Virus record (IMG/VR): IMGVR_UViG_3300003155_000003
From: a virus
Length of the DNA stretch: 64,000 bases
Strand: one strand, 5' to 3'
Positions 202 to 62,434 of the stretch are shown one piece after another (position 1 is the first letter of the stretch; every line of letters starts with the position of its first letter). Below the pieces are notes generated by a model that was not told the DNA's origin, did not search any database, and saw only the letters and a program-made list of their open reading frames with translations. The translations under genes and the position numbers were made by a program.

Positions 202-1218
202 ATGGAAAAGTTTAATTTATTGGGAGTAAGCGCAGGTCAAGGTGCTTTATTATTCCCTTTTATAAAATCTAAAAAGTACAAGCTCCTGGGTAATATTGAA
301 CCAAGAGGAGTTTTTCATACAAATTGCGAAAGTCAGTGGAAAGCCAATTTTAAGGATATACCGTTCTACAAAGGATACTGTTTACAAGAGTTTGATGAGA
401 AAGTAGATATCATAATCTCTTCTCCAGACTGTGGAGCATCATCAATTATGAGACTTTCAAAGGTTAAAGAATTGGGTAAGCCCAAAGATAACCGAAGTTT
501 AAATCTAGTAATAGAAGGAATCAATTATTACAAGCCTAAGATTTTTCTTATAGAAAACCTACCTCGTTTGCTATCTCTCTTACCCAATGAATACCTTCAG
601 GAAGCCTTTAAAGACTATAAACTTATTTTTCATGAAAGAAGCGTTTCCGACTATGGGAACTCCCAAGTATCAAGGAAGCGTTTAGTTATCGTTGGAGTGC
701 ATAAGAAAGCCGGTAAGAAATACTTGAATGCTTTTAATGAAGTATTCCAAGTAAAAACTCCAACAATTACTAGAAATCTACTTAACGATTACCAGAATCC
801 ATTGAATTATAACATTCCTTTGGATAAAACCCTGGCAATGTATGATTATCGGAAGCTTCCTAAAAAGAAGAATCTAACCGTTAAAAAGATTCAGCTATTG
901 TGGAATAGTGACTTCAAGAATGAAAAGAAATGGCCCATAAAGACTGCTAAGATGAGTACTCTCCCAGGAGTGTATCGATTAGAGTTAGATAAAGCTCCTC
1001 TAACTTTAAGACCTGCTGATAGACAGTTCCGACCCGATGGTTACCCTCTTGGGATTTTAGATTTCAAAGCAATTATGGGATTCCCTAAAGCCTACAAGAT
1101 TTTCATGGATGAAGGCAATTACCTTTACTGGCTTAACAAGGCAAGGTATACCATAGCTAAAGGGTCGGTCTACGAAATTTCAATATGGTTCAAACGTTGT
1201 ATTAAGAAGGTTTCATGA
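202..1218 (+). CDS. DNA (cytosine-5)-methyltransferase-like protein (divergent motifs)
   Basis: The C5-MTase motifs occur in the expected order: motif I-like LLGVSAGQGALLFPF, motif IV-like SSPDCGASS (Pro/Cys core), motif VI IENLPRL (ENV-like), motif VIII QVSRKRLVIVG (QxRxR), and a C-terminal AKGSVYE in place of GNAV. Confidence 0.6.
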   Translation: MEKFNLLGVSAGQGALLFPFIKSKKYKLLGNIEPRGVFHTNCESQWKANFKDIPFYKGYCLQEFDEKVDIIISSPDCGASSIMRLSKVKELGKPKDNRSLNLVIEGINYYKPKIFLIENLPRLLSLLPNEYLQEAFKDYKLIFHERSVSDYGNSQVSRKRLVIVGVHKKAGKKYLNAFNEVFQVKTPTITRNLLNDYQNPLNYNIPLDKTLAMYDYRKLPKKKNLTVKKIQLLWNSDFKNEKKWPIKTAKMSTLPGVYRLELDKAPLTLRPADRQFRPDGYPLGILDFKAIMGFPKAYKIFMDEGNYLYWLNKARYTIAKGSVYEISIWFKRCIKKVS

Positions 1219-6902: not shown

Positions 6903-6928
6903 AGAAATAATCGATAAATATCACTGTT

Positions 6929-7396
6929 ATGACGAAAATCGTAAACAAAGACCAAGCAATGACTCTCTTTGGGGAAAAGACTCCAAGAGCGGTGATTTAC
7001 AAAAGTGAATCCCACAAATTGCACCAAGCCTTCAATGTAAAAGAAGGAGAAACAATCGTTCAGGGTATGCCGGTAGCAATTGATGAAACTGGCCTCATAT
7101 TCCCTTTTAAAGCTGCTGATACTGAAGTATATTTGGGAGTTGCTGTTACTGATAACATCAATCCGGCTTACCGTGCCCAACATAACTTCCCTGTAGAAGT
7201 TACAGTTGCCATGGAAGGTTACATGATTTGTAATTGGGTATCAAATACTACTCTTACTGCTGGTTATGTAATCCCTTCTGGAGATTTGCTAAATGACCGT
7301 TTTGTAAAAGCAAACCAGGAAACCTCAACAACTCCTTTCATTGCTCTTACTCCGGCAGACGAAGCAAACGAGTTAATCCAAGTACTTATTAAATAA
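6929..7396 (+). CDS. small capsid-module protein (possible decoration/cement protein)
   Basis: A 155-aa ORF directly upstream of the major capsid gene. Its codon usage shifts to ccg/cgt-type codons, as in the capsid gene. Confidence 0.35.
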   Translation: MTKIVNKDQAMTLFGEKTPRAVIYKSESHKLHQAFNVKEGETIVQGMPVAIDETGLIFPFKAADTEVYLGVAVTDNINPAYRAQHNFPVEVTVAMEGYMICNWVSNTTLTAGYVIPSGDLLNDRFVKANQETSTTPFIALTPADEANELIQVLIK

Positions 7397-41606: not shown

Positions 41607-42534
41607 GTCTAAGCTCAAAACTTATTTCATTAAAAGACTTGGAGCTTTTGAATATAGGAGAGGATGGATGAAACTCCCAACTTGCCCATACTGTCACAGG
41701 GAATTAAAGATGGGAGTTAATCTTTCCATGTACAGAACTAATTGCTTTAGATGTAATAAACATCCGAATCCTTCACAATTAGTTATGGATGTTGAGGGAT
41801 TCGATACTTATCACGAACTTATAAATTTCTTAAACAATGGACAATTCGAAGAACTTGAATTTCATGATGAAAAGGTTGAACTTGCCAAAGCTAAACCTTT
41901 GTACTTACCCGATAGTTTTAGACTCCTTAGTATCGGAGATTCACAAATTGCAAGGAGCATTAGAAGCTATGTCAAAGGCCGCGGATTTAGTATTGAAGAG
42001 TTATGTAAACATGGAGTTGGTTATGCGACGAAGGAACCTTTCTTCGGATACCTTATTATACCGTTCTATTATCATGGCCAACTTAGGTATTACAATGCCA
42101 GAAAAGTTATCGGAAACGGTCCTCGGTATAATAACCCCAACAAAGATATCACAGGCCTTGGAAAAGAGTTTATCATATTTAATTATGACGCATTGGAAAT
42201 GTACAGGTCGGTATTCATTTGCGAAGGAGCACTTAATGCTCTCACCCTCGGAGATAGAGCTATTGCCACAATGGGCAAAGTTGTATCTAAATATCAACTA
42301 AACGAACTAATAAAGGCACCTTGTCAACGGTATATAATTCTATTAGATTTTGATGCTCAAAAGTATGCTATAGAATTAGCCTTAAAACTCATATCGTATA
42401 AGAAGGTGAAGTTAGTTCTTTTTGAGGATAATCGAGATGTAAATGACTTAGGTAAGAAAGCCGTTCTTAAAAAGGTTTACAAAACTAAGTATGCTACTTA
42501 TCAAGATTTAATTAAACTTAAAAACTCACTATAA
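41584..42534 (+). CDS. DNA primase (zinc-ribbon + TOPRIM)
   Basis: Zinc ribbon CPYCHRELKMGVNLSMYRTNCFRCNKH, TOPRIM glutamate FICEGALNALTL and DxD ILLDFDAQ. It is adjacent to the helicase gene. Confidence 0.75.
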   Translation: MKITNQFKSKLKTYFIKRLGAFEYRRGWMKLPTCPYCHRELKMGVNLSMYRTNCFRCNKHPNPSQLVMDVEGFDTYHELINFLNNGQFEELEFHDEKVELAKAKPLYLPDSFRLLSIGDSQIARSIRSYVKGRGFSIEELCKHGVGYATKEPFFGYLIIPFYYHGQLRYYNARKVIGNGPRYNNPNKDITGLGKEFIIFNYDALEMYRSVFICEGALNALTLGDRAIATMGKVVSKYQLNELIKAPCQRYIILLDFDAQKYAIELALKLISYKKVKLVLFEDNRDVNDLGKKAVLKKVYKTKYATYQDLIKLKNSL

Positions 42535-43061
42535 TGGAAGATAATGTACCGGGTTTTATAGGTTACCATATTACTAGAGAGGGAGAATTGTATTCAAGAC
42601 GGGTAGAAAGATCTCCTCATAAGTTTGGTAAATGGCATAAATTAAGACTTTCGAAAAAGGTTAGAGTTAAGGTAAGACTCTATAAGGATGGTATGGGTTA
42701 TGATTTGAGTATTAGTAGGTTGGTGGCTTTAGTATATGTATATAATCCTAATCCTTCTAGATTTAATGAGGTAATGCACTTAGATAATAACCCCTTAAAT
42801 AATCATTATAGGAATCTTCAATGGGGTACACATAGTATGAATATACAACAAATGATTTTCGAACAGAGAAGAAGGTCATTTAAAACTACCCAAAATCCCA
42901 ACTGGGAAAATTTTAAGATTTCTGATAGAAAACTGAGAAGATTTAAAAGATTACTGAGTTTAGGTAATAGTAAGCTATACATTAGTAAAAGGTTAAAGGT
43001 GTCACGTAAAACGCTCTATAACTTTATTCATAGAACTAAAGTCAGAAACTCTTTGGAATAA
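42534..43061 (+). CDS. HNH homing endonuclease (NUMOD4 + HNH_3 + C-terminal HTH)
   Basis: VPGFIGYHITREGELYS, SRLVALVYVYNPNP, MHLDNNPLNNHYRNLQWGTHSMN and a C-terminal LYISKRLKVSRKTLYNFI. The ATG overlaps the primase stop codon. Confidence 0.85.
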   Translation: MEDNVPGFIGYHITREGELYSRRVERSPHKFGKWHKLRLSKKVRVKVRLYKDGMGYDLSISRLVALVYVYNPNPSRFNEVMHLDNNPLNNHYRNLQWGTHSMNIQQMIFEQRRRSFKTTQNPNWENFKISDRKLRRFKRLLSLGNSKLYISKRLKVSRKTLYNFIHRTKVRNSLE

Positions 43062-44078: not shown

Positions 44079-44666
44079 ATGAAAGCTTTAAAATTTTTAG
44101 GTAACAGAGTAGAGGATGCGGCTAATGCTTTTATTGATGTCCTCAAGTATTCAGACCAATCCGTAGATTACCCAGATTTCAACGATATCGAACCTTGGCC
44201 GGATGATATTGTTAACATGTTCAAGGATGCTCTGAAGGATAAACCTTTCTCAGAGATTAGTGCTATCCTAATGTATACTCAACAGTCTTCAAGGTTCGAA
44301 CCTATTGCAGAACTTATGTTGGGTATTGGTTTGGTAGAGATGAGACACTATGATAAATTATCTGATTTCTTACAGAAGGCAGACCCATACGAGGAGAATC
44401 CAGTTATGGATATTTATCCAAAGGTAGAGGTAGGTTTTTCTCCTGAGAGTGCTTTAAAGATTGCATTAGATTCGGAGATAGAAACCATCGGTCATTACAA
44501 GAAGATTATGAATAACGTAGCTTTATACAATGACCGGGCAGATTACGATGACGTGATGTACTTATTGAATAAGTTGGTTGCTGATGAAGAACATCACATT
44601 AAACTTCTCAAAGAGGCAATGGGTATGGATAAATCCACTAAAGGTGTAACGGTAATTATCAAATGA
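44079..44666 (+). CDS. ferritin-like di-iron carboxylate protein (rubrerythrin / Mn-catalase-like four-helix bundle)
   Basis: Two ExxH motifs with upstream Glu residues: SEISAILMY...LVEMRHYDKL and DSEIETIGHY...VADEEHHIKLL. Confidence 0.5.
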   Translation: MKALKFLGNRVEDAANAFIDVLKYSDQSVDYPDFNDIEPWPDDIVNMFKDALKDKPFSEISAILMYTQQSSRFEPIAELMLGIGLVEMRHYDKLSDFLQKADPYEENPVMDIYPKVEVGFSPESALKIALDSEIETIGHYKKIMNNVALYNDRADYDDVMYLLNKLVADEEHHIKLLKEAMGMDKSTKGVTVIIK

Positions 44667-47204: not shown

Positions 47205-47391
47205 GATGATATGGGCTATGTTCAAGATATATCTTAACAACCCAAATTATTATGTAAGGCAAGAGGATGTTCTTGCTGATTTGTTTATGGAGGGTGAATC
47301 TGACCTTAACAGATTCTGTCATTCACTGGGAATTTACCCTCAACGAGGATTAACCTTTGGACAACTTTTAAAACAATGTAATATATTATGA
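47191..47391 (+). CDS. hypothetical small protein (start moved to ATG 47191)
   Basis: Track ORF 47137-47391 overlaps the upstream gene by 68 nt. The in-frame ATG at 47191 (MKKIEMIWAMFK...) cuts the overlap to 14 nt. Confidence 0.4.
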   Translation: MKKIEMIWAMFKIYLNNPNYYVRQEDVLADLFMEGESDLNRFCHSLGIYPQRGLTFGQLLKQCNIL

Positions 47392-47924
47392 ACAAATTTA
47401 GATTTATTAAAGTAAGGGAGGTAGTATCTCCCAACAGAGCAAACCCTAATGATGCTGGGTTAGATTTTTATGTACCAACTGATTTATACCCTGATGATAT
47501 TCATGACAAGAACGAATTTGATTCAAATGGGTATATTTTAGATATGCCCTTTAATGAAAATTTCGTAAGGCATATATCTTTAAAACCAGGTCATCGTATA
47601 CTTATCCCATCTGGTATCAAAGGTTTGCTAGAACCTCCTGCATCTATGTTAATGGCAGCAAACAAATCGGGTATAGCTACTAAGAAAGGGTTAATCTTTA
47701 CTGCCGAGATAGTAGATTCTCCATATGTTGGTGAGATACACATTGGAGTATATAACACCTCTCAAGAAATTCAGGTTATAGAAGCTGGGCAGAAGCTGGT
47801 ACAATTTATTCATGTACCCATCTATATCACCGAGCCAGAAGAGATTCAGCAAGAAGAATTCTATACTGAATCTCAAATGTGGGGAAGTCGGCAAGATAAA
47901 GGTTTCGGCTCATCAGGAAATTAA
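47388..47924 (+). CDS. dut: trimeric dUTPase-fold dUTP (or dCTP) pyrophosphatase
   Basis: Motif 1 NDAGLDFYVP, motif 3 AEIVDSPYVGEIHIGVYN, motif 4 GQKLVQF and motif 5 RQDKGFGSSG. Confidence 0.8.
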   Translation: MNKFRFIKVREVVSPNRANPNDAGLDFYVPTDLYPDDIHDKNEFDSNGYILDMPFNENFVRHISLKPGHRILIPSGIKGLLEPPASMLMAANKSGIATKKGLIFTAEIVDSPYVGEIHIGVYNTSQEIQVIEAGQKLVQFIHVPIYITEPEEIQQEEFYTESQMWGSRQDKGFGSSGN

Positions 47925-47941
47925 TAAGAAAGGAGTATATT

Positions 47942-48778
47942 TTGGACATCAGGAATATCAAAGAAGAAGTACCACTCACAAGAGAAGGTACTGAGTTACA
48001 AGAGATGTATTCTCTTGGAATACAACAATTTGAAGGCTACAGGCAAATAGAAAAATTGCCAGAAGCTCCATTGGACGTGAATAACCCATCTAATCAGGCA
48101 ATCCTTAAAGACTTTATTGGTAGAGTGATAGAGGAATTGATGGAGGGTTATGAATCTACTTCTGAAGTAGTTAAGATATGCCATAAGTGGGGATGGAATA
48201 TTGAACAACTTACAGAAGATGAATATACCCAGGTACTCAATCATTTGCAAAATGCCAATGAGGAACAGGTAGATGCCTTGGGATTCTACTTCACTTTATT
48301 TCTCTTTGCTAACATTGCTCCAGAAGATATTCTATCATGGGGAACTAATCATGTAATGGATTACTCAGACTTCAAAGTAAATAACTTGAAGGATGTAATT
48401 ACTCTTGGTATAGCAATGGTTACTGAAGGTAGTATTGGTTTAGTTAATCGGTTTAACATGGTTGATGAAGACCATGAATCCGTAAAAGATTATACTCCGG
48501 GATTCAATACTTTAAGTGAATCATCTCACGAAGAAGAGAAGGTATTATTGTTCAATGTAGTTTACGAACTGAACATTGCAAGAAATCTTCTAAAGTGTAG
48601 GCCATGGAAACAAACCCAGGTAATGACTAAGGAATTAGATTTTCAATATTCTCTGGTAAAAGCTTTCTACCTATATATGGGATTCTTGGGATTACAAGGA
48701 TTTACTCCAGAAGGGTTATTTAGGTTATTCTTTAAGAAACAACGCCTTAACAGATGGCGTCAAAAATCAAACTACTAA
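47942..48778 (+). CDS. MazG-like / all-alpha NTP pyrophosphohydrolase (possible dCTPase analogue of T4 gp56)
   Basis: The paired EExxE/EExxD helices RVIEELMEGYES and NANEEQVDALGFYFTLFLFA are typical of MazG-type NTP-PPases. The track start is a TTG at 47942 preceded by AAGGAG, and an alternative in-frame ATG lies at 48005. Confidence 0.45.
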   Translation: MDIRNIKEEVPLTREGTELQEMYSLGIQQFEGYRQIEKLPEAPLDVNNPSNQAILKDFIGRVIEELMEGYESTSEVVKICHKWGWNIEQLTEDEYTQVLNHLQNANEEQVDALGFYFTLFLFANIAPEDILSWGTNHVMDYSDFKVNNLKDVITLGIAMVTEGSIGLVNRFNMVDEDHESVKDYTPGFNTLSESSHEEEKVLLFNVVYELNIARNLLKCRPWKQTQVMTKELDFQYSLVKAFYLYMGFLGLQGFTPEGLFRLFFKKQRLNRWRQKSNY

Positions 48779-49683
48779 TGTCAGGTTGGAATAGAAAATT
48801 AGAGGGTCTTCAATCTAATACGGAGGAGACCCTCCACTCTTTGGAGTTTGCTACTTCACAAGAGGCATGGGAGAAATTGAACGAGGCTTTCTTAAGATTA
48901 GACCCTGTTCTTTTTGATAAAGGTGCTACTGCAAACAGTGGAGTTGCAGTAGCATACAACGTGTTTATAAAAATACGTAAAGCATGGGTAGACCCAGATT
49001 TTGATTATGGTAGGTGTTTTAATTACAAAGAGACTAAGTGGACGAGCTTATTGAATAATTATATTGATTTTAATAAGTTAGACCTCTTACGTAGCAAATT
49101 AAGACTCCTGAAAAACAAATATAATCAGAATTACAATGTTACGTACATGTTTAATAATCATCATGATAATGGTAAACAATGTCTAATAGCTGCAACATTT
49201 TCGAAGAGATTTGGGGAAGATATACCGGTCATCACAATGGTGGTTCGAGCTTCAGAAATTACAAAAAGGTTAATCTTCGACTTCTTATTAATCCAACGGA
49301 TGGCGGAATATGTGTACGGACCAGAACAGTCGGTACAAATAAATTTATTTGCTACTCAAATGTATGGGAATGTAGAAACCCTTCTGATGTACTCGGCTTA
49401 TAAACCTCTTAAGAAAGTAATCAAGGGTATTGATAATCCATGGACTAAACGGGTTAAGGAAGTATATAAGAAAATCTTGAACGGTACAGAAAAGGAATGG
49501 TCATCATTCAAAGTATTTTTCAGAAGTTTCAAAGTACTACGTCCTGACTTGTATGAATACCAAGCTTTGTTAGCAAAGGACTTGCTATTAGAATATGAAG
49601 ATATAGAATATCCAGAAAATGTGATATCCTATTCTCAACGTAAAGCATATAAGAAGAAACTTTTAAAACAACAAAAGAAATGA
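48754..49683 (+). CDS. divergent thymidylate-synthase-fold paralogue (function unknown; alternative start ATG 48778)
   Basis: GKQCLIAATFSKR...VITMVVRASEITKRLIFDFLLIQRMAEYVYG runs parallel to RIPCSMYYDFLIR...LHICYHQRSSDFAQHFGNDIYLAWRLMEYVAQ of the next gene (Cys ... R-x-S-[DE] ... D ... MEYV). Confidence 0.35.
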   Translation: MASKIKLLMSGWNRKLEGLQSNTEETLHSLEFATSQEAWEKLNEAFLRLDPVLFDKGATANSGVAVAYNVFIKIRKAWVDPDFDYGRCFNYKETKWTSLLNNYIDFNKLDLLRSKLRLLKNKYNQNYNVTYMFNNHHDNGKQCLIAATFSKRFGEDIPVITMVVRASEITKRLIFDFLLIQRMAEYVYGPEQSVQINLFATQMYGNVETLLMYSAYKPLKKVIKGIDNPWTKRVKEVYKKILNGTEKEWSSFKVFFRSFKVLRPDLYEYQALLAKDLLLEYEDIEYPENVISYSQRKAYKKKLLKQQKK

Positions 49684-50450
49684 GGATATACAGCAATTCG
49701 TTTGAGTTAATGTCAGAACTTGGCAGAGAACTCAACAGTTATGGTCAGACTGTAAAACCAAAGACCTATCAGAATAAAAGGATTGAAGGTAATGAGGATT
49801 TTATTACAAAAGAACTCATTTGCCAACAATATTGCTTAACTTCACTCGGAGACCCGGTATGGTTATTCGTATTCTCTCATTCAAAGGAATGGGCAGATGC
49901 CGAGTTTAAAGAAAGAATTGGTTGGTATGATTTAAATCCAGGTAAAGCTTGGGAATTGAGAAAAGATCTATGGGAACAGTTTTTGGTGAATGGTAAGTTT
50001 GATTACACCTACCCAGAGCGTATTTGGAACTCGTTAGACATTTATGGTAGTACTTCTTTTAACTGTGATTTAGCAATGCAATCAGTTATTGAGCTTCTTA
50101 AAAGGGATAATGATACTCGTAAAGCAGTACTTCCTATATTCCATGGTACAGATTTAAGATTCCTTGATGGAAGTAAACGTATACCTTGCTCAATGTATTA
50201 TGATTTCCTTATCCGTCAGAATGGTAAAGGAGAGAAGGTATTACATATTTGCTATCATCAAAGAAGTTCAGACTTTGCCCAACATTTCGGTAATGATATT
50301 TATTTAGCTTGGAGATTAATGGAATACGTAGCTCAAGAAGTAGGTGTAAAGCCTGGTTATCTATATCATACCATAGATTCATTGCATATATACAAAAAAG
50401 ATTGGCATTTCTTAAATACCAATTTGGAAGACTTACAAGAAAAATACTAA
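49680..50450 (+). CDS. thymidylate synthase family enzyme, predicted deoxycytidylate-specific (dCMP hydroxymethylase/methylase-like)
   Basis: Catalytic Pro-Cys (RIPCSMYYDF), YHQRSSDFAQHFGNDIY aligning with E. coli ThyA [17 protein letters not shown], and DSLHIY aligning with GDTHLY. Asp replaces ThyA Asn177. Confidence 0.65.
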   Translation: MRIYSNSFELMSELGRELNSYGQTVKPKTYQNKRIEGNEDFITKELICQQYCLTSLGDPVWLFVFSHSKEWADAEFKERIGWYDLNPGKAWELRKDLWEQFLVNGKFDYTYPERIWNSLDIYGSTSFNCDLAMQSVIELLKRDNDTRKAVLPIFHGTDLRFLDGSKRIPCSMYYDFLIRQNGKGEKVLHICYHQRSSDFAQHFGNDIYLAWRLMEYVAQEVGVKPGYLYHTIDSLHIYKKDWHFLNTNLEDLQEKY

Positions 50451-50452
50451 TA

Positions 50453-50950
50453 ATGAGGGATGTATCTACTACTGGTGGGTATGTCCCTTTTTCTATTTAT
50501 AAATATATGAAGAAAAAACATGTATCATCTTTTCCAGTAATCTTGCGTAAAAGGTTCATGGATAATATACCTGGATTTTCTGGTTATTATGTTTCTAAAC
50601 GAGGTCGGGTATATACCAGAAGAAGAGTTGGATTAGGTAGAAAATCTAAAACTGGTGTTGGAGATTTAAACAGAGTGGGTTATTGGAGGGAATTAACTAG
50701 AATAACTAACCATAAGGGATATTATAGGTTAGTAATACAGGATGATTTCCGTAAAAGACATTATGTACAAGTGTCTAGGTTGGTAGCTTTAGCTTATATA
50801 CCTAACCCATTAAATAAACCATTTGTATGTCACAAAGATAATAATCCTAAGAATAATTTTTATAAAAATCTTTACTGGGGTACTCAATCTGAGAATATTC
50901 AACAATGTGTTAAAGATGGGAGACATCAATCATGCAAACTAGATATGTAA
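50453..50950 (+). CDS. HNH homing endonuclease (start moved to ATG 50453)
   Basis: IPGFSGYYVSKRGRVYT, SRLVALAYIPNPLN and CHKDNNPKNNFYKNLYWGTQSEN. The track ORF (50309) overlaps the upstream gene by 142 nt, and the in-frame ATG at 50453 removes that overlap. The 3' end overlaps the DNA polymerase start by 19 nt. Confidence 0.8.
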   Translation: MRDVSTTGGYVPFSIYKYMKKKHVSSFPVILRKRFMDNIPGFSGYYVSKRGRVYTRRRVGLGRKSKTGVGDLNRVGYWRELTRITNHKGYYRLVIQDDFRKRHYVQVSRLVALAYIPNPLNKPFVCHKDNNPKNNFYKNLYWGTQSENIQQCVKDGRHQSCKLDM

Positions 50951-53223
50951 TTATTAAGAACAAACGTATGCTTAAAAAAGTTATTGAACTATGTAAGTAT
51001 ACCGGATATGCCAGTGTGGATTATGAAACTGATGGTTCACCAATATATAATAAGGGTTTTAAGCCAACTATACTCTCAGTATCCTGGATGCCAGGGTTTG
51101 GTGCTTCCATTCCTTTAGACCATTTCGAAACAAAAGATTATACTTCACCTGGTTGGAATTGGAAAAAGATGCTAAAGAAATTTGGGGAAGAGGTAATCGA
51201 GAATTATGACATTGTAAAGGTTGCATGGAACTGGAAGTTTGATGACCAGATTAATCAAAAGTATCACATCTATTATAGAGGTACTTGCCTTGATGGAATG
51301 CTTGCAAAATATGTTCTCAATGAGGAAAAACCACATGACCTAAAATCAATGGTTAGAAGATATTTACCAGAACATGGAGATTATGAGAAGCAAGATAAAT
51401 TCGATAAGATACCTTGGGATAAAAAAGAATTAGACCCACTTTGTCATTATGGATGTCAAGATACAGATTATACTCTTAGGTTAATGATATTCTTTGAGAA
51501 AAAGTTAATTGACTTAGGTATGTATTCGGTATTCCGTAATTTATTTATGTGTAATTCCCGGGTATTAACCTCGGTAGAGAAAGAGGGTTTATACCTTGAT
51601 ATCAAATTTAATCAAAAACTCCTTGAAGAATACAAACCCAAAATTGATGCTGCAAGGGAAGCTATCTATAATTTACCAAGAGTAAAGAAGTTCACTAAGA
51701 AATATAATCAAGGTAAGATTGAGAAATATATTCAATCAATCGAAGCTGAACTCGAGGAGTTAGATTATAATGACCCAAAAGATAAACGTAAGATTGATTC
51801 TCGGCAACAAAAGATAACTAATATACGTGCAGGGGTATTTACTACTAAGAAAGAACAGGAACTTATAAGACCAGTTAATCTTGGTAGTCCAGTTGATTTA
51901 CCTCAACTAATGTATTCAGATATTGGATTCAAATTTCCAGTAATAAAGGATAATGAATCTGGTAAGCCAAGTACAGATGAAGATACATTAACCGAATTAA
52001 GGTTAACTGTAAAAGACCCTGAATCTCCAAAAGCAATATTTCTTGATAAGATGCTTGAATTGAGAGGTTTAGAGAAAATGTATAAGACTTATATTTTAGG
52101 TTGGTCAGAGAAGGTACAAGATGATTCTCGATTACACGGTAGGTATAATATACATGGTACAGATTCTAATAGGTTTAGTTCTGCAGACCCAAACATGCAA
52201 CAAATACCAAAGACTTCCGTAGACCCAAATATCAAGAAACAATTGGTAGCTCCTCCCGGTTATCTTTATATGGCATTCGACTATTCTCAGGCAGAATTAA
52301 GAATGATGGCTCACTTATCAGGTGATGAAACTTACCTGGAAGCATTCGCTAAGGGAGTAGACCCTCACTTGGGTATAGCAGCAGCAAAATATGGTGTATC
52401 GATCGAAGAAGCAAGTAAAGCTTATGAAGATGAAATGCACCCAGATTATAAATTATGGAAGGTACGAAGGAAGCAAGCTAAACAGATTGCATTTGGACTT
52501 ATTTACGGAATTGGTAATAAATTACTAGCACAGAAGTTATCTGACCCAAAAGCTGGTATTATAGTTACTCCGGAAGAAGCAGCAAAGGAAATGGAAGTAT
52601 TCTTTGGTCAACATCCTAAGATTAGGAAGTTTAAAGAGAAACAAGAGAAATTCCTTCGTAAGCATGGGTATTATACCCAATTATTTGGTACTAAACGAAG
52701 ACTTCCACAAATATATTCAAATGATAAGCAAGAGGTTGCTTATGCAATTCGTTTAGGTCTTAATTTCCCATGTCAAGGTGCCGCAGCAAATATGACCAAC
52801 TTCGGAGCTATCCTGGTTTATTATCTAATGAGGCAAGGTAAACTGCCAATGATGAAAGAAGCTTGTACAGTACATGATGCCGTATATATGTATGCTAAAC
52901 CAAACGATATTAACACATGGACTGTATATACAATCTGGAATATCCTACGTAACCCAAGTACTAAAAGGTATTTCGGATTTCAAGTTGATGATGTTGATAT
53001 GGATATGGACTTTACCATTGGTAGAACCATGGCAGAAGAATTACCATTCATTCCTGGGTATGATTATAACAAGATGTTACAACCAGATTTCTCAGTAGAG
53101 GAATATATGGCTGAACATAAGAAGTATAAGCATATCCACATCAAGCAATTCAAAGAAAGGTTTAATAAACAAATAAAGAGATATGAAAAAGATTTTGAAC
53201 GGACCCACGATATGGCGAGCTAA
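50932..53223 (+). CDS. family A DNA polymerase with 3'-5' exonuclease domain
   Basis: Exo I VDYETDG, Exo II WNWKFDDQ, Exo III HYGCQDTDY, motif A DYSQAELRMMAH, motif B RRKQAKQIAFGLIYG and motif C TVHDAVYMY. Confidence 0.9.
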   Translation: MQTRYVIIKNKRMLKKVIELCKYTGYASVDYETDGSPIYNKGFKPTILSVSWMPGFGASIPLDHFETKDYTSPGWNWKKMLKKFGEEVIENYDIVKVAWNWKFDDQINQKYHIYYRGTCLDGMLAKYVLNEEKPHDLKSMVRRYLPEHGDYEKQDKFDKIPWDKKELDPLCHYGCQDTDYTLRLMIFFEKKLIDLGMYSVFRNLFMCNSRVLTSVEKEGLYLDIKFNQKLLEEYKPKIDAAREAIYNLPRVKKFTKKYNQGKIEKYIQSIEAELEELDYNDPKDKRKIDSRQQKITNIRAGVFTTKKEQELIRPVNLGSPVDLPQLMYSDIGFKFPVIKDNESGKPSTDEDTLTELRLTVKDPESPKAIFLDKMLELRGLEKMYKTYILGWSEKVQDDSRLHGRYNIHGTDSNRFSSADPNMQQIPKTSVDPNIKKQLVAPPGYLYMAFDYSQAELRMMAHLSGDETYLEAFAKGVDPHLGIAAAKYGVSIEEASKAYEDEMHPDYKLWKVRRKQAKQIAFGLIYGIGNKLLAQKLSDPKAGIIVTPEEAAKEMEVFFGQHPKIRKFKEKQEKFLRKHGYYTQLFGTKRRLPQIYSNDKQEVAYAIRLGLNFPCQGAAANMTNFGAILVYYLMRQGKLPMMKEACTVHDAVYMYAKPNDINTWTVYTIWNILRNPSTKRYFGFQVDDVDMDMDFTIGRTMAEELPFIPGYDYNKMLQPDFSVEEYMAEHKKYKHIHIKQFKERFNKQIKRYEKDFERTHDMAS

Positions 53224-54356: not shown

Positions 54357-54743
54357 ATGAACTATTCATTGACTTTCGTATCTGTAGCAGTAGCTCAGAA
54401 ATTTAATGAAGAATTGCCCGGTAGTCCAACAGAGAACCGGGTATTGATTTTATCTCCAAAAGAGGTAAATCAAACAAAATCCGGACTCTTTATTCCGGAA
54501 CAAGTAAAAGAGGGAGTACCTCGTAAGGGAGTAGTAGTAAAATCTGGTATCATCACCGAAGAATATAACACCTATAAGGACTTTGTTGCTATCGGCAGAA
54601 TTGTTACTTATGGTTTATATGCAGGTAAGGAAATGGAATTTGAAACAGACAAGCTTTCTCCCGCATTGCAACAACTTCTGGAAAAGAACACTCTTACAGT
54701 GTTAAGTATGAACGAGGTAATTTATACCGAACCAAACGAGTAA
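54357..54743 (+). CDS. GroES-like co-chaperonin (T4 gp31 functional analogue)
   Basis: ENRVLILSPKEVNQTKSGLFIPEQVKEGVPRKGVVVKSG follows the Cpn10 pattern (drvlv...e.e.kt.gGi.iP......kp..g.VvavG). The ORF is 128 aa. Confidence 0.6.
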   Translation: MNYSLTFVSVAVAQKFNEELPGSPTENRVLILSPKEVNQTKSGLFIPEQVKEGVPRKGVVVKSGIITEEYNTYKDFVAIGRIVTYGLYAGKEMEFETDKLSPALQQLLEKNTLTVLSMNEVIYTEPNE

Positions 54744-56785: not shown

Positions 56786-57650
56786 GAAAACAATATTACT
56801 GGTTGATGGAGAGAACATTCTCCATCAATCCTTTCACAAGTTCGAAAAACTTAAATCTACCGATGGTAAACCAAGTGGAGCAATTTTCGGGTTCTTCAAA
56901 TCATTACATATGTATCTTACAAGGTTTGAACCAGATGATGTAGTAATAACTTTCGACAATGGTCATTCACCGGTAAGAGATAAATTACTTCCCAATTATA
57001 AGGGACACAGAAAAAATATATCCGTAGATTATGAATCATTGCAAAATCAAAAGGCAATAATTATGAAGATATTGGGTATGCTAAGAATTCCTTATATATT
57101 CGATAAAAGGAATAAAACCAAATATGAAGGTGATGATTTCTTAGCATACCTTGTTATTAATACTTATCGGGCAGAAAAGGTAATATTGGTATCATCAGAT
57201 AAGGATTTTAACCAACTCTTAAACAAGAACGTTAGGATACTGAATCCTCGGAAAGATGAAACAATCCGAGTAGATAACTGCAAAGAATTATTCGGTTATC
57301 ATTCACATGAAACTGTACAGTATCTTGCAATGGTAGGTGATACTTCGGACGATATACCTGGGTTTAATGGTATAGGTCCAGTAAAAGCAAGGAAGATATT
57401 AGATGAGTATGGTACTATATATAAGTTCTTAGAAGCTAAACCCAATAAAGAATACTCAGAAGCTTGGGAAAGGAATCGTAAACTTATTGACTTATTCTGG
57501 TTTGTAGGTAATGTACCTTTGGATTCATTGCCCATCAAGAAGAAAAAGGTATTCAAGTATGAGAAATTCAAAGAACTATGTATCGAGTACTCATTAGCAT
57601 CTTTTTTAACAAATGAATTTATAAAACCTTTTAAAAAGTTACAAGAATGA
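56778..57650 (+). CDS. 5'-3' exonuclease / flap endonuclease (T4 RNase H-like); start moved to ATG 56778
   Basis: TILLVDGENILHQSFH (PIN-like N-terminal domain), YEGDDFLAY, VSSDKDFNQL and H3TH GDTSDDIPGFNGIGPVKARKIL. Confidence 0.8.
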   Translation: MSKKTILLVDGENILHQSFHKFEKLKSTDGKPSGAIFGFFKSLHMYLTRFEPDDVVITFDNGHSPVRDKLLPNYKGHRKNISVDYESLQNQKAIIMKILGMLRIPYIFDKRNKTKYEGDDFLAYLVINTYRAEKVILVSSDKDFNQLLNKNVRILNPRKDETIRVDNCKELFGYHSHETVQYLAMVGDTSDDIPGFNGIGPVKARKILDEYGTIYKFLEAKPNKEYSEAWERNRKLIDLFWFVGNVPLDSLPIKKKKVFKYEKFKELCIEYSLASFLTNEFIKPFKKLQE

Positions 57651-58351
57651 AGAACGTAAAGATAATGTATGCAGGTCCAAGTGGAGTTGGAAAGACTACA
57701 CTTGCAGAGTTTACTCCTAAGTTGTATCATTATGGTGTATGTGAAGCTCAACCTATGAGATTCATTTCTGGTAGTGTATCCGAATTGATACCTAAAACCA
57801 AAGATATGACCCATAAGGAGATGTTGGAAAGGAATCCAAAGGATTTACTTCTTGAAGATTATCAGATTCTAAACCTTCGGAATAAGTTATTCAAAGATGA
57901 AGAGGATTTTGTAACAGATAGAAGCTATCTTGATTCGGCAGCTTACTTTTATTACAAACAATCCCAGAATATCCCAAAATGTGAAATGGAACACTTCTTC
58001 GAGATGTGCAAAATGTTACTCAATCAACAATGTACTCATCTAATCATCTTAGACTTCACTACTGCAATGATTAAAGAATGGGTAACAGAGGGTAATAATA
58101 AAAGGATTGAGAACAATTACTTTCAATTCTTGATATCTTCAATCATGGATAATATGCTGAATATTTGGGGATTCATTCCGGTAGAGGAAATTAACGTACT
58201 TTACAGAGGTTGGTTCAAAAGACAACCTCTTGAGTATGGTGCTACTAAAGGTACTATCAAATCTTGTTATGGAGAAACAAAAGTTATTCAGATACGAGAG
58301 GCTAATATAGATATCCGAAAAGAAATTATTCAAAGTTTTATCAATGAGTAA
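57647..58351 (+). CDS. P-loop deoxynucleoside/deoxynucleotide kinase-like protein
   Basis: Walker A MYAGPSGVGKTTLAE and a dNK-like DRSYLDSAAYFYY. The ORF is 234 aa. Confidence 0.5.
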   Translation: MKNVKIMYAGPSGVGKTTLAEFTPKLYHYGVCEAQPMRFISGSVSELIPKTKDMTHKEMLERNPKDLLLEDYQILNLRNKLFKDEEDFVTDRSYLDSAAYFYYKQSQNIPKCEMEHFFEMCKMLLNQQCTHLIILDFTTAMIKEWVTEGNNKRIENNYFQFLISSIMDNMLNIWGFIPVEEINVLYRGWFKRQPLEYGATKGTIKSCYGETKVIQIREANIDIRKEIIQSFINE

Positions 58352-58721
58352 AGAAGTAGTATTTATAGATAATATAAAGGGATATCCCGGGTATCATATT
58401 ACCCGGGATGGTTTATTGTATAGTAGGTACGATAATAAGGGTAGGCTTACTTCTAATACTTGGAAAATTCGTAAGCCTACGATATCTACTAATGGGTATG
58501 TAAAATATGGATTTTGTTTAAGGTTTAGAAAAATAAAAACCCAACTCTATGCCCATAGATTAGTAGCAGAAGCCTATATACCTAACCCCAATAATTTACC
58601 TGTAGTAATGCACCTGGACGATAATCCTAAGAATAATTCTGTAGAGAATCTTAAATGGGGAACTACTTTGGATAATATAAGGGATTGTATTAAGAAGGGT
58701 AGAAAGGTAGTAAGGAAGAAA
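58344..58721 (+). mobile_element. HNH homing-endonuclease module (N-terminal domain of the fusion ORF)
   Basis: It is a paralogue of the free-standing HNH ORFs at 42534 and 50453. It ends with ...NIRDCIKKGRKVVRKK and has no stop codon before the SbcD motif I. Confidence 0.7.
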
Positions 58722-59678
58722 ATAATATCCTATGTTATCTCGGATTTACATATTGGAGAGTATGGTAAATTTACTAGTAGAACTGAAACAGCTTTCCGAG
58801 TGTTAGTAAAGTTATCAAAACTCTGTGTAAAGAATGGAGTTCCCTTATTACACTGTGGAGATTTATTTCATAGTTCTGATAAGATATCTCCGGATTTATT
58901 ATGTAGGGTTATGGAAGTATTTAACAACTTATCTAAAAAAGACTTTATAATACTAACCATTTCAGGTAATCATGGTAGCCCGGTTACTCATAGAATAGGA
59001 GATAGAGAATTTATATCCTATGATAAAGCTATTGTTAAAGCTTTCCCTAACCTTTTCTATTCATTAGATTATGAACACTTTAGGCTAAATTATCATAAAC
59101 ATGTAGTTTATGGGATACCGTATATAGATAATAACCTCGGTTTATCGGAGTACATAAAGGGTATTAAACTTAATCCTAAAAAGAAAAATATTCTTTTATT
59201 ACATACTGATTATCCGGGAGCAAAAGATACCGATGGTAGAGAAATTGGTTCTGTAGAGAATCTTAATGTAAATACCCTAAATAAATTTGATTTGGTGTTA
59301 TGTGGACATATACATAAACCACAAAGATTATCAAAGAAGGTATATATGATAGGAGCCCCTTATCAACAAAGGAGAACTGATAAAGATTGTGATTTGGGAT
59401 ATTGGGAGTTATATTCGGATTTATCTATGAAGTTTATACCCTTGAAGGGTTTTCCAAAATTCATTGATGTAGAATCTGAAGATGAAATTAAGGATGATGG
59501 AAATTATTATACCGTTTTACCTAAGAAAACTAGTAACTTAGTAAATACTAACCATAAAATTACTAAGCAACTTTCTAAGAAAGCTCTAGCAAGGAAGTAT
59601 CTTAAGGAAAAGGGTATAACTGAGCAAGATAAGAAAGAACTACTGATTGACATACTTAAAAAAGCTGAATCATGTTAA
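58344..59678 (+). CDS. sbcD: HNH homing endonuclease fused in frame to SbcD/Mre11-type nuclease (T4 gp47 analogue)
   Basis: Residues 1 to about 120 are the HNH part: IKGYPGYHITRDGLLYS, HRLVAEAYIPNPNN and MHLDDNPKNNSVENLKWGTTLDN. From about residue 127 the sequence is a calcineurin-like phosphoesterase, with motifs VISDLHIGEYG, HCGDLFH, SGNHG, LLLHTDYPG and CGHIHKPQ. Confidence 0.75.
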   Translation: MSKEVVFIDNIKGYPGYHITRDGLLYSRYDNKGRLTSNTWKIRKPTISTNGYVKYGFCLRFRKIKTQLYAHRLVAEAYIPNPNNLPVVMHLDDNPKNNSVENLKWGTTLDNIRDCIKKGRKVVRKKIISYVISDLHIGEYGKFTSRTETAFRVLVKLSKLCVKNGVPLLHCGDLFHSSDKISPDLLCRVMEVFNNLSKKDFIILTISGNHGSPVTHRIGDREFISYDKAIVKAFPNLFYSLDYEHFRLNYHKHVVYGIPYIDNNLGLSEYIKGIKLNPKKKNILLLHTDYPGAKDTDGREIGSVENLNVNTLNKFDLVLCGHIHKPQRLSKKVYMIGAPYQQRRTDKDCDLGYWELYSDLSMKFIPLKGFPKFIDVESEDEIKDDGNYYTVLPKKTSNLVNTNHKITKQLSKKALARKYLKEKGITEQDKKELLIDILKKAESC

Positions 59679-62434
59679 CATTTACAACAATGAACGTAGT
59701 AGGATTCTGTTCAATAGAAAACCTACATATACCTTTAAACCCGAGTTGTACCATACTTATCAAGGCACCTAATGGGAAAGGTAAAGCACAACCTTTAGAA
59801 GAACCCGTTTTAACCGCTAATGGTTGGAAAAAGATGGGGGAATTAACTCTTAATGATAAAGTAATTAACCCAGTTACAGGTAAACCTATCAAGCTATTGG
59901 GTATTTATGATAGAGGTCTATTAGATACTTACAAAATAACCTTTTCTGATGGCTCATGTACTGAATGTGCTGGAGACCATTTATGGTCAGTATTCAAATC
60001 TGGTAAAGCTAAAGACAGACTAAGAACCTTAGATACCGAGACTTTACTAAAGGATTATAAGGTTGAGAATAAAACTGCTCCTGGTACTTTCAAGTATAGA
60101 TACTCAACTCCATTAACCGTACCAATTGATGGTAATTATACTAAATTACCAATACACCCCTACGTATTAGGGTTTATATTAGGCGATGGTTGTATTTCCG
60201 GTAATAGGCCTACAGTTAGAGTATCTACCAATAGAGAGGATTGGCCAGAGATAGTTGATAGATTAAGGTCATATTTGCCAGACCCAAACCTGGTTCATGA
60301 AGGTACAGATGTAAGAGGGGCTAAACACTTTAGGATTCATGGTTTAGGTAAAGAACTTAAGGATTTAGGATTAATTGGTTGTAAGTCTAAAGATAAGTTT
60401 ATACCAGAGTTATATTTGAAATCATCAATCGAGAATCGTAGATTATTATTAGCTGGTTTATTAGATACTGATGGATGTGTTGGTTCCAAAAAGAAAATCT
60501 CAAAGGTTTCTACGTATTCATCTAAGAGTGAGCACTTAAGAGATGGTATTAGCTATTTGGTAAGATCCCTTGGAGGCCTATCTACTAAAAATGAAAGTAC
60601 CCGGTTTAAGTATGGTAGGTATACTACTTCATATGTGTGTTCAATACGACTAACCTTTAACCCTTTTCTAAGGAAATATAAAACTAAATCCTATGGTGAG
60701 TTTACCAGGAGAAATAGAATGGTAAATACCATAAGAAATATTGAATATATAGGGAAAAAGGTATGTAGGTGCATTAAAGTAGATTCTTCAGAAGGCCTAT
60801 ATATTACCAGAGATTTTATAGTTACCCATAATTCAACTATCTTATCGGCATTGGTATGGGCAATATATGGGAAAAACCTAAAAGGTGTATCCGAAGTTAC
60901 TACCTGGGAAAAGATAAGACCTAAAGATTACCAGGGAGTAATGGTAGAGGTATTCTTTCAAAAGGGGGAACATATTTATAAAATTATCAGATGTCAGAAA
61001 TGTAATATAGTTCTTGAGGATGGAGCTAAAGGTAAAGATAGGCTTATCCTTATGAAAGATAATGAGGTAGTGAATATAAAAGGTAAGAATAAACTCCAGG
61101 ATGCTATTAATGCAGAACTTGGATTATCTTACACTTTATTCATGAACTCGATAATGTTTGGTCAAGGGATTAAGAGGTTAATACAAGAATCAAATGCCGA
61201 CAAGAAAAGGATATTTGAGGAAGTATTTGACCTTGAGTTCTTGAATATAGCTAAAGGAATAGCTATGCAGGATAAAAATAACCTGTTAGCTCAAGCAAAC
61301 GAGGCAGAACATCAATCCGAGTTACTTAAAAGGGAATTGGAAGCTAGTAAAGAGGCTTACTTTGATTTACGTGACAGGGAGAAAGGTTTTAAAGAGAAAA
61401 TCAAATCGGAACGTAGAGAGTTAAAGAAAGACAGGGAAAAGCTAACTAAGTTACTGATTGAAAAACAAAAGGCACTTAAGGATGAAGTAGAAAAAAGTCT
61501 TCAGGTAAAGATTAAAAAACATAGTACCTATGTAGATACTCTTAAGTCAAAGCTTAGGGATAATAGAATGGTTGCAGAAGGGGTTTCTTTACCAGATTTT
61601 GTAAAGAAACTTAAGATACAGTTAGATAAAGGCCACTACAAACGTGCAAAGGCGAGCGTAGATATTATTTACAATGCCCTGATTAATTCTGATAAGTTAC
61701 GAGAAGAGTATGAGGATGCTCTAGAAAGGTTAGGTGAGTTGAGGACTACAAATGAGAAGTATAAGAGACTTCAAAAAGACTGTGAAGACATTGCTTCAGA
61801 TATTGCATCTATTGACGAGGATTTGGAAAAGCTCAAACGAGAGAAGCTTAAGGTTATGTCTCCTAAGTATAAAGAGAAACTTAAGGAAATTAGAAAGAAT
61901 CTTCGTAAGGTAGATGAGGATTACCATAATAAGGAGTTAGAATTAAAAAACTACGATTGGTTACTTAATGACCCACTTGGTAATAATGGAATCAAGGCTT
62001 ATCTGTTTGATTCATCTCTGGGTATGTTAAATAGAACACTTGATAAATATTCTCAAGTATTGGGATTCAGGATTGAATTTGGTATAGATTTGGGTACTAT
62101 TAGAAAAGACTTTTATACTTTAATTGAAAGGGATGGGCAAATTATTGATTATGATGAACTATCGGGAGGAGAACGACAACTTTGTAATGTAGCAATGGCT
62201 TTTGCTATGAACGAATCTCTAACTGCTTCCAAAGGGATTAATCTAGCCTTCTTAGATGAAGTATTTGAATCTTTAAGCTCAGATAATGTAGAGGTGGTTA
62301 CATCCTTAATCAGGCATACTTTTGCAAATAAGACCCTATTTCTAATTACCCATTTAGATTCACTTCCATTATCTAATACTAAAATCCTGCAAGTTGAAAA
62401 GGTGAATGGCCTGAGTAGGTACCAACTACTATAA
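59672..62434 (+). CDS. sbcC: Rad50/SbcC-type ATPase (T4 gp46 analogue) interrupted by an intein
   Basis: The Walker A motif is split (APNGKGK / STILSA). Other motifs are Q-loop IMFGQG, a long coiled coil, signature LSGGERQL, Walker B LAFLDEVFESL and H-loop LFLITHLD. Confidence 0.85.
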   Translation: MLTFTTMNVVGFCSIENLHIPLNPSCTILIKAPNGKGKAQPLEEPVLTANGWKKMGELTLNDKVINPVTGKPIKLLGIYDRGLLDTYKITFSDGSCTECAGDHLWSVFKSGKAKDRLRTLDTETLLKDYKVENKTAPGTFKYRYSTPLTVPIDGNYTKLPIHPYVLGFILGDGCISGNRPTVRVSTNREDWPEIVDRLRSYLPDPNLVHEGTDVRGAKHFRIHGLGKELKDLGLIGCKSKDKFIPELYLKSSIENRRLLLAGLLDTDGCVGSKKKISKVSTYSSKSEHLRDGISYLVRSLGGLSTKNESTRFKYGRYTTSYVCSIRLTFNPFLRKYKTKSYGEFTRRNRMVNTIRNIEYIGKKVCRCIKVDSSEGLYITRDFIVTHNSTILSALVWAIYGKNLKGVSEVTTWEKIRPKDYQGVMVEVFFQKGEHIYKIIRCQKCNIVLEDGAKGKDRLILMKDNEVVNIKGKNKLQDAINAELGLSYTLFMNSIMFGQGIKRLIQESNADKKRIFEEVFDLEFLNIAKGIAMQDKNNLLAQANEAEHQSELLKRELEASKEAYFDLRDREKGFKEKIKSERRELKKDREKLTKLLIEKQKALKDEVEKSLQVKIKKHSTYVDTLKSKLRDNRMVAEGVSLPDFVKKLKIQLDKGHYKRAKASVDIIYNALINSDKLREEYEDALERLGELRTTNEKYKRLQKDCEDIASDIASIDEDLEKLKREKLKVMSPKYKEKLKEIRKNLRKVDEDYHNKELELKNYDWLLNDPLGNNGIKAYLFDSSLGMLNRTLDKYSQVLGFRIEFGIDLGTIRKDFYTLIERDGQIIDYDELSGGERQLCNVAMAFAMNESLTASKGINLAFLDEVFESLSSDNVEVVTSLIRHTFANKTLFLITHLDSLPLSNTKILQVEKVNGLSRYQLL
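59786..60832 (+). mobile_element. intein (349 aa, aa 39-387) with LAGLIDADG homing endonuclease; class-3-like W-C-T signature
   Basis: It starts AQPLEEPVLTANGWKKMGEL. Block B is AGDHLW, the LAGLIDADG motifs are LGFILGDGCISG and LLAGLLDTDGCVG, the block F Cys lies in VCRCIKV, and it ends FIVTHN followed by a Ser at +1. Confidence 0.8.

Follow-up and report, generated by a model that had tools for sequence, protein, structure and literature searches.

A candidate module for cytosine modification in gut phage DNA

Four consecutive genes in a 64,000-nucleotide stretch of viral DNA (IMG/VR record IMGVR_UViG_3300003155_000003; hereafter the window) encode a trimeric dUTPase-superfamily enzyme (ORF1), an all-alpha NTP pyrophosphatase related to the T4 dCTPase gp56 (ORF2), a very divergent protein with a predicted thymidylate synthase (TS) fold (ORF3) and a TS-family enzyme carrying the aspartate that marks cytosine specificity (ORF4). 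We favour, with moderate confidence, the reading that these four genes, together with a kinase-fold protein encoded further downstream (57647-58351), make a deoxycytidine nucleotide modified at carbon 5 (C5) before replication and exclude normal dCTP. In the pathway that we propose, ORF2 would hydrolyse dCTP to dCMP, and ORF4, working as a folate-type TS-family enzyme, would attack C6 of dCMP and place a one-carbon unit on C5, its Asp177 (numbering of Escherichia coli ThyA) selecting cytosine over uracil. ORF3 would act on the same nucleotide or on the product of ORF4, and might be a further catalytic step of its own or a partner subunit that ORF4 requires. Phosphorylation to the triphosphate would then fall to the kinase-fold protein and host enzymes, and the adjacent family A DNA polymerase (PolA) would incorporate the product, while the dUTPase ORF1 would hold dUTP low. 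A preliminary description made from the DNA alone had placed the four genes between 47388 and 50450 and had proposed the same T-even logic of destroying the dNTP, modifying the dNMP and rephosphorylating it. All four open reading frames indeed lie there on the + strand, and the logic remains the best reading of them, strengthened by the recurrence of the same gene set in phages unrelated to one another, often with a kinase directly adjacent, although a C5 methyltransferase-like gene elsewhere in the window fits poorly with a complete substitution at C5.

ORF4, a thymidylate synthase-family enzyme with cytosine-type residues

ORF4 (49680-50450, + strand, 256 aa) matches the Pfam family Thymidylat_synt (PF00303; E 3.5e-15, 56.3 bits, cut-off 24.3), and its top sequence matches in the PDB are HY126 AfhB (4e-10) and MilA (8e-7), with ThyA behind them. 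Its start codon overlaps the stop codon of ORF3 (ATGA), which suggests translational coupling. The residue at ThyA position 177 is Asp both in HMMER alignments to Staphylococcus aureus ThyA, MilA and HY126 AfhB and in MAFFT alignments that include ThyA of E. coli and gp42 of T4; the gp42 sequence came from the T4 record, and we take the E. coli sequence used to be the standard one, its length of 264 and 20 numbered residues agreeing with the standard numbering. The preliminary description had reached Asp177 by hand alignment, and this conclusion stands, although the 20-residue strings that it quoted were offset by one, such that their literal pairing puts Asn on N177 and the QRS-to-QRS register gives Asp. 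ORF4 also retains Cys146, Arg166, Ser167, Asp169, Tyr94, Trp80, Arg126, His207 and Tyr209, whereas its equivalent of Glu58 is uncertain, having been aligned in one MAFFT run and shifted in later ones. The signature of its clade comprises Arg143, Ser147, Asp169, His173, Asp177 and a short C-terminus. Arg143, Asp169 and Asp177 occur in 18 of the 18 TS sequences linked to the module; at position 173, which in ThyA lies close to C5, 17 of these sequences have His and the remaining one (L087) has Phe. The exchange of Asn177 for Asp is an experimentally established switch from dUMP to dCMP (PMC8670742, PMC13326640), and TS homologues with Asp177 are enriched on those metagenomic contigs for which cytosine modification was demonstrated (PMC8670742). 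From these residues, ORF4 is predicted to act on dCMP at C5.

The identity of the product is less easily read from the alignment. A canonical ThyA has Asn177 and a C-terminal segment that closes over the folate, and ORF4 has neither; a dCMP hydroxymethylase of the T4 type combines Asp177 with an acidic residue 143, whereas ORF4 has Asp177 but Arg143; and a methylase of the Xp12 type has a full-length TS C-terminus and a neighbouring dihydrofolate reductase (DHFR), both missing here. The ORF4 C-terminus extends only some 18 residues beyond Tyr209 and is without a segment of roughly 45 residues found in ThyA and the Xp12 methylase. In ThyA this segment closes over the folate and the active site for hydride transfer. 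The short C-terminus and the lack of a DHFR gene by the module lean weakly to a product other than a methyl group. Published diagnostics take Asp177 as the sign of a dCMP substrate and Asn169 as that of a flavin-dependent 5-hydroxy-dCMP synthase (PMC13326640). We ruled out this identity, that of RB69 gp48 and AfhB, for ORF4 because its residue 169 is Asp (in an RSSD motif) and not Asn. According to a further published rule, an enzyme with an acidic residue at position 143 yields a hydroxymethyl product, and one with a hydrophobic residue there a methyl product (PMC13326640). We dropped the choice between methyl and hydroxymethyl from this residue as unreliable and did not apply the rule to ORF4, because it already fails for Xp12, whose proven methylase has Asn143.

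ORF3fam, a divergent family with a predicted thymidylate synthase fold

The preliminary description had recognised two TS-fold proteins, which holds (ORF4 by Pfam, ORF3 by AlphaFold2 and Foldseek), but had taken the second as a weaker copy, whereas ORF3 belongs to a separate and strongly constrained family, which we call ORF3fam. The mechanically called reading frame of ORF3 spans 48754-49683 (+ strand); its true start is most likely the ATG at 48778 (Met9), which overlaps the stop codon of ORF2, because the homologues begin at Met9, and this gives a protein of 301 aa (48778-49683). ORF3 has no match in Pfam or NCBIfam, and its only match, PHROG 34294, is labelled 'unknown function'. Neither its sequence nor the ORF3fam profile gave a significant match in the PDB (E 0.56 for the family profile), so that its fold was set by structure prediction. 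The AlphaFold2 model, built on a 74-sequence alignment, has a mean predicted local distance difference test score (pLDDT) of 92.9, and every significant match of this model to the PDB in Foldseek is a TS-family protein, with MilA, HY126 AfhB and T4 dCMP hydroxymethylase on top at probability 1.00 and E down to 5e-6, yet with modest TM-scores of 0.38-0.52; a search of BFVD agrees. On the strength of the model, ORF3 is probably a very divergent member of the TS fold. Profile comparison by hhalign of ORF3fam with a TS alignment gave a weak match (E 3.7e-4, probability 36%), which pairs ORF3 C135 with ThyA C146, R157 with R166, E160 with D169 and D168 with N177.

An exhaustive search for ORF3fam yielded 144 clusters at 50% identity. 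In 74 full-length sequences of the family, which are 19-57% identical to ORF3, Tyr83, Lys87, Tyr95, Cys135, Arg157 and Asp168 are invariant, and Asn35, Trp88, Glu160, Arg164 and Arg249 nearly so. The spacing of Arg157-x-Ser-Glu160-x7-Asp168 is exactly that of ThyA Arg166-Ser-Cys-Asp169-x7-Asn177, an Arg occupies the position of Gly173, and, in our reading of the alignment, Tyr-Asn stands at the cross-subunit pair Arg126-Arg127 of ThyA. The C-terminal tail of the family is rich in Lys. Some genomes encode two ORF3fam paralogues, all of which keep the conserved residues; C135, R157 and D168 are retained in every paralogue from the gut, Clostridium perfringens and other Firmicutes-type loci. ORF3fam would therefore keep a putative nucleophile, a residue to anchor the phosphate and one to set specificity for cytosine; this pattern of conservation favours a working enzyme, or a partner indispensable for catalysis, over a decayed duplicate. 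The longer homologues that we examined contained no informative domain fusions, and our literature search found no paper on ORF3fam or on the TS clade with Arg143 and His173. ORF3fam is a putative enzyme family not previously recognised, and its GenBank entries are nearly always called 'hypothetical'. We propose, as a tentative suggestion only, that it performs a second C5 transformation on the cytosine nucleotide, in which case an undescribed cytosine derivative would be present in the DNA of one of the most abundant groups of human gut phages and of over 100 phages in culture. Examples of such chemistry would be the addition of the Cys to re-activate 5-hydroxymethyl-dCMP, with its hydroxyl swapped for another group, or a reduction independent of DHFR.

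Supply and clearance of nucleotides by ORF1 and ORF2

ORF1 (47388-47924, + strand, 178 aa) is a trimeric dUTPase-fold enzyme, as first described, with a match to Pfam dUTPase (PF00692; E 1.3e-14, 54.5 bits, cut-off 22) and to PHROG 135 dUTPase (9.5e-23), and the five dUTPase motifs are recognisable in its translation. It also matches NCBIfam dut (1.2e-17), under the equivalog cut-off, and dCTP deaminase at only 0.005. It probably hydrolyses dUTP, which would keep uracil out of the DNA and supply dUMP. One related locus (L087, 1882-3366) contains two tandem dUTPase-fold paralogues.

ORF2 (47942-48778, + strand, 278 aa) starts with TTG behind a good AAGGAG ribosome-binding site and matches PHROG 12184 'nucleotide pyrophosphohydrolase' (4e-19). 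With Pfam dUTPase_2 (PF08761) it scores 21.8 bits, marginally under the cut-off of 22.9, which its relatives in other phages exceed. Its placement among the MazG/all-alpha pyrophosphohydrolases of the gp56 superfamily, or dimeric-dUTPase/T4 gp56 family, was borne out by the EExxE and EExxD metal motifs, invariant in an alignment of 12 sequences of the ORF2 family, and by the hhalign match of the family profile to T4 gp56 (probability 84.6%, E 6.8e-6) over the C-terminal 46 residues. The same ...KN..N..RQ..NY motif ends both ORF2 and T4 gp56 and is also found in the dimeric dUTPase of Campylobacter jejuni (1w2y). We infer that ORF2 is a dCTPase converting dCTP to dCMP, because the trimeric dUTPase ORF1 would make a second dUTPase redundant and because of the gene context.

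The kinase-fold protein and PolA

The P-loop protein at 57647-58351 (+ strand, 234 aa) had been described as similar to dNMP kinases, and its predicted structure agrees. Its sequence profile matches the P-loop only; it hits PHROG 'thymidylate kinase' at 2.4e-5 and, weakly, Pfam AAA_28. The AlphaFold2 model (pLDDT 89.2) has a nucleoside-monophosphate/deoxynucleoside kinase fold, and its top Foldseek matches are the deoxyadenosine kinase of Giardia and thymidylate kinases, at probability 1.0 and TM-scores of 0.45-0.55. T4 gp1 is absent from the top 50 fold matches; the protein, which may work like gp1, appears to stand outside the gp1 family. With its modelled fold and gene context in mind, we propose that it phosphorylates modified dCMP. 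The protein is also kept in two related loci (L002 and L091), and other phage lineages have a different small kinase directly upstream of the pyrophosphatase gene (Firmicutes, Actinobacteria and Proteobacteria carriers), which supports rephosphorylation as part of the function of the module.

PolA is encoded at 50932-53223 (+ strand), and Pfam DNA_pol_A matches the product of identical length in a relative (L099). In most of the loci studied, a PolA gene comes directly after the module (L001, L002, L085-L091, L092, L095 and L101-L104), and L094 is uninformative in this respect, the locus ending soon after the module. We presume that this polymerase uses the modified dNTP. In L092 and L095 it is fused to a domain similar to uracil-DNA glycosylase (UDG).

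Distribution of the module

The combination of pyrophosphatase, ORF3fam and a TS enzyme with Arg143, His173 and Asp177 recurs in 16 loci, from Bacteroidota-type gut lineages and from phages of Firmicutes, Actinobacteria and Proteobacteria. The order dUTPase, pyrophosphatase, ORF3fam, TS and PolA is kept in related gut phages (MT121964 and seven IMG/VR loci, with 33-45% identity in ORF3fam), the dUTPase standing upstream of the module in 6 of these 8 loci. In the Clostridium perfringens phage CPD4, the order is kinase, pyrophosphatase, ORF3fam, TS and PolI; three Firmicutes-type metagenomic contigs combine RepB-type primases with the same four genes, often with a deaminase and a UDG-fused PolA. 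The set of kinase, gp56-like pyrophosphatase, ORF3fam and TS, often with a deaminase and PolA after it, recurs in gut phages and beyond them, and the module is also present in phages from culture, namely Gordonia GTE2, Streptomyces KimJongPhill, Brevundimonas Strzyga and Serratia Serbin. Further cultured carriers are the C. perfringens phage A2, Pseudomonas PMBT14, Gordonia Emalyn and Azira, and the Mycobacteroides phage Maco2. Serbin, a 9g-like phage, does not have the 7-deazaguanine cluster of its relatives (PMC6509536) and carries the module in place of that cluster. By tblastn, ORF3fam was found in 13 GenBank phage records with a gut query, 18 with a proteobacterial one and 85 with an actinobacterial one, a total of 116, mostly cultured phages from four host phyla, in which the gene adjoins one annotated 'thymidylate synthase'. 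The TS enzyme with Arg143 and His173 is always paired with ORF3fam. In many carriers a gene of the dCMP-deaminase family lies between the TS gene and PolA; none was found in this window, and no DHFR gene was found near the module, either in the window or in any module locus.

The module does not appear to be the thymidylate synthase of these phages, because some carriers have a true one beside it: L085 has a canonical ThyA (N177, H147, G173; 6005-6973) inserted between the pyrophosphatase and ORF3fam genes, and L094 a ThyX gene (Pfam Thy1) adjoining the module.

The genes of the module also differ in how closely they are matched among near relatives. ORF3 has relatives that are 99% identical, whereas the best for ORF4 is 94%, most being about 80% with a difference of 11 residues in length, and the best for the kinase is 83%. 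Such sequence differences suggest that closely related phages exchange parts of the module in a mosaic fashion. Megablast of the module region against GenBank phages found no near relative, and a locus search with the closer ORF3fam alignment returned near-identical gut phages only. IMG/VR locus searches with two divergent ORF3fam queries gave no matches; the divergent contexts described here came from a search for encoding contigs and from the GenBank tblastn.

Comparison with known systems

The closest parallel is the gp56/gp42/gp1 system by which T4 makes 5-hydroxymethylcytosine. Both have an all-alpha enzyme of the dCTPase family, a TS-family enzyme with Asp177 and a nucleotide kinase; ORF2 has the C-terminal signature of gp56, and ORF4 and gp42 share C146, D169, D177 and a short C-terminus. 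In contrast, residues 143 and 173 are Arg and His in ORF4 but Asp and Gly in gp42 (the two proteins are only 22% identical), the kinase of the module is not a detectable homologue of gp1, and the module has an obligatory second TS-fold protein. We know of none in T4. The 'gp56/gp42/gp1-like' label of the preliminary description is consequently apt for the logic and for ORF2, but not for the TS enzyme, which has neither the acidic residue 143 nor Gly173, or for the kinase. The earlier remark that no glycosyltransferase is visible was upheld: none occurs among the reading frames of at least 90 aa that were scanned in the window (nearly all of those on the + strand, one on the - strand and a few shorter ones), nor in the remaining ~20 kb of close relatives, which differs from T4 with its glucosyltransferase.

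Xp12, which makes 5-methylcytosine, likewise has a TS homologue with Asp177 and a neighbouring dCMP deaminase, as in many carriers of the module. Unlike ORF4, the enzyme of Xp12 has the full TS length, its residues 143, 147 and 173 are Asn, Pro and Gly, and a DHFR gene lies beside it; ORF3fam was not found in 50 kb of Xp12 that include its TS gene. The flavin-dependent 5-hydroxy-dCMP synthases RB69 gp48 and HY126 AfhB are by sequence the closest solved structures to ORF4, with a short TS fold and Asp177, and are among the closest folds to ORF3, but their diagnostic change from Asp169 to Asn is absent from ORF4, which has Asp, and from ORF3fam, which has Glu. The CMP hydroxymethylase MilA of mildiomycin biosynthesis, cytosine-specific and with Asp177, is the best fold match of ORF3 and a significant sequence match of ORF4, whereas it uses a ribonucleotide in antibiotic synthesis and has Asp143 and Gly173. 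The metagenomic contigs identified by MetaGPA, for which cytosine modification was shown experimentally, share the neighbourhood of TS, all-alpha pyrophosphatase, dCMP deaminase and PolA, although their tested enzymes may be of another type than that with Arg143 and His173; ORF3fam would have been invisible to these studies, because they used Pfam domains and ORF3fam has no Pfam model. To our knowledge, three chemistries of pre-replicative cytosine replacement are known (hydroxymethyl, methyl and hydroxy), each with a single TS homologue. The module most likely follows T4-like logic without being of the T4, Xp12 or RB69 type, and would represent a distinct and widespread variant of pre-replicative cytosine modification.

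Evidence against cytosine replacement and competing explanations

Several observations weigh against the replacement of cytosine in this phage. The first gene of the window (202-1218, + strand) encodes a 338-aa protein similar to C5 cytosine DNA methyltransferases (PF00145, E 5e-13), with recognisable motifs I, VI and VIII and with Pro-Asp-Cys where Pro-Cys is usual, and the title of the related record MT121964 likewise names a DNA cytosine methyltransferase. Such a gene is hard to reconcile with complete substitution at C5, because the enzyme needs DNA in which C5 is unsubstituted. Over the whole window there are 11 copies of GATC where 252 are expected (z -15), a depletion that points to continued selection by restriction or methyl-directed systems at a site containing C. 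Depletion is moderate for CTAG, GTAC and CATG and absent for 4-mer palindromes made of G and C only, so that the palindrome statistics as a whole are ambiguous; CpG has an odds ratio of 0.5. The methyltransferase-like gene and the avoidance of GATC lower our confidence in cytosine replacement, although they are compatible with modification because a changed base need not protect against every enzyme. In addition, the combination of Arg143 and His173 in ORF4 matches neither known product class, the similarity of ORF3 to TS sequences is weak (hhalign probability 36%, TM-scores of at most 0.52), and the preference of ORF2 for dCTP is a prediction from redundancy with ORF1 and from gene context. 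Our literature search found no nucleoside analysis or DNA composition for this phage or for any carrier of the module, and the papers on CPD4-like, Serbin and P744 phages contained no restriction or modification data.

Among the competing explanations, a plain 5-methylcytosine system of the Xp12 type, in which ORF4 alone methylates dCMP, the deaminase of the relatives converts some of the 5-methyl-dCTP to dTTP and ORF3fam plays an accessory part, is the strongest, and we regard it as possible while giving it clearly less weight than an even chance. The dCMP-deaminase-family gene between TS and PolA in many carriers fits it well, deaminases in neighbourhoods of TS, all-alpha pyrophosphatase and PolA having been shown to be selective for 5-methylcytosine and five of seven cognate Asp177 TS enzymes having made 5-methyl-dCMP in vivo (bioRxiv 10.1101/2024.12.05.627091). 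However, the TS enzymes tested in that preprint may lie outside the clade with Arg143 and His173; enzymes of the ORF4 type are without the ~45-residue C-terminal segment that ThyA and the Xp12 methylase possess; no module has a DHFR nearby, whereas that of Xp12 is adjacent; Xp12 has Gly173 and, in the 50 kb that include its TS gene, no ORF3fam gene; and the deaminase was not found in this window. Somewhat more doubtful is the idea that ORF3 and ORF4 form one heterodimeric TS-type enzyme with ORF3 as a specialised partner subunit, which arises because TS enzymes are obligate dimers whose subunits share arginines of the active site. The strict pairing of ORF3fam with the TS gene, the overlapping stop and start codons in several loci and the Tyr-Asn that ORF3fam seems, in our alignment reading, to have at the cross-subunit Arg126-Arg127, where ORF4 keeps Arg126, all speak for such a partnership; two ORF3fam genes per single TS gene in L002, L089 and L092 and the full set of catalytic-type residues that ORF3fam has of its own speak against it.

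The two remaining explanations leave the virion DNA without a modified base, and we consider both improbable. The module could alter nucleotide pools only, for example by depleting dCTP or by making a modified nucleotide as an inhibitor or for counter-defence. The C5 methyltransferase-like gene and the strong avoidance of GATC, suggesting DNA that is at least partly unmodified, would suit this explanation, but the module constantly adjoins a replicative PolA and a nucleotide kinase, and experiments have linked TS genes with Asp177 to modified DNA (PMC8670742). Least probable of all, by a little, is ordinary nucleotide salvage, in which dUTPase, thymidylate synthase and thymidylate kinase raise the supply of dTTP. 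GenBank entries and genome announcements do annotate a thymidylate synthase, a thymidylate kinase and a deaminase 'involved in thymine synthesis' (Serbin, PMC6509536; Azira). Against this stand Asp177 in all 18 module-linked TS sequences, the canonical ThyA or ThyX beside the module in some carriers, the gp56-family pyrophosphatase, which would duplicate ORF1, and the extra TS-fold enzyme with a cytosine-type Asp, which has no place in dTMP synthesis. If we return to the modified deoxycytidine that we favour and ask which base the DNA finally contains, a hydroxymethyl-type base or a derivative of it is in our rough estimate the leading candidate, though well short of an even chance, followed by 5-methylcytosine and then, more tentatively, by another group dependent on ORF3fam; the absence of bulk modification seems unlikely.

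Genome setting

The window is a segment of a phage genome with 35% GC and nearly every gene on the + strand. It comprises a structural block of contractile-tail and baseplate proteins and a replication block with DnaB, primase, an SNF2-type helicase, PolA, a gp32-like single-stranded DNA-binding protein, a RecA/UvsX-like protein, FEN and SbcCD-like proteins. Thousands of near-identical contigs of ~85 kb occur in human and animal gut metagenomes. The layout agrees with what has been published on 'Flandersviridae', a proposed family of gut phages (contractile tail, DnaB, DnaG, PolA and a 20-kb unknown region), whose hosts are Bacteroides and Parabacteroides (PMC8008677), and this is the candidate family of the phage. 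About 20 kb of the genomes of relatives lie outside the window (L099 10723-20726, L100 1-9400) and contain small reading frames that have no Pfam match except for muramidase, HNH and KTSC domains; profile searches would miss any further DNA-modifying enzyme within them.

The SbcC/Rad50-like ATPase (59672-62434, + strand) contains an intein with a LAGLIDADG homing-endonuclease domain, and a close relative has a 571-aa version of the protein without it. There are three copies of an HNH endonuclease, at 42534-43061, at about 50452-50950, where it stands between the TS gene and PolA, and at the N-terminus of the product of 58344-59678, where it is fused to an SbcD-like phosphoesterase; the phosphoesterase of a relative is 321 aa long and free of HNH. 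The replication block also holds a ferritin/rubrerythrin-like protein (44079-44666) and a GroES (Cpn10)-like protein (54357-54743).

Implications

The module brings to light a distinct TS clade locked to a second TS-fold enzyme, and the pair travels through phages of at least four bacterial phyla. Its carriers include a very common lineage of human gut phages as well as phages proposed for therapy against Clostridium perfringens and Mycobacteroides abscessus, and many of them are available in culture collections. If their DNA is modified, this would affect the evasion of restriction and CRISPR, the prediction of host range, and the sequencing and methylation calling of gut viromes, and the annotation of these genes as devoted to 'thymine synthesis' would need correction. 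The module may also yield new enzymes for DNA-modification tools.

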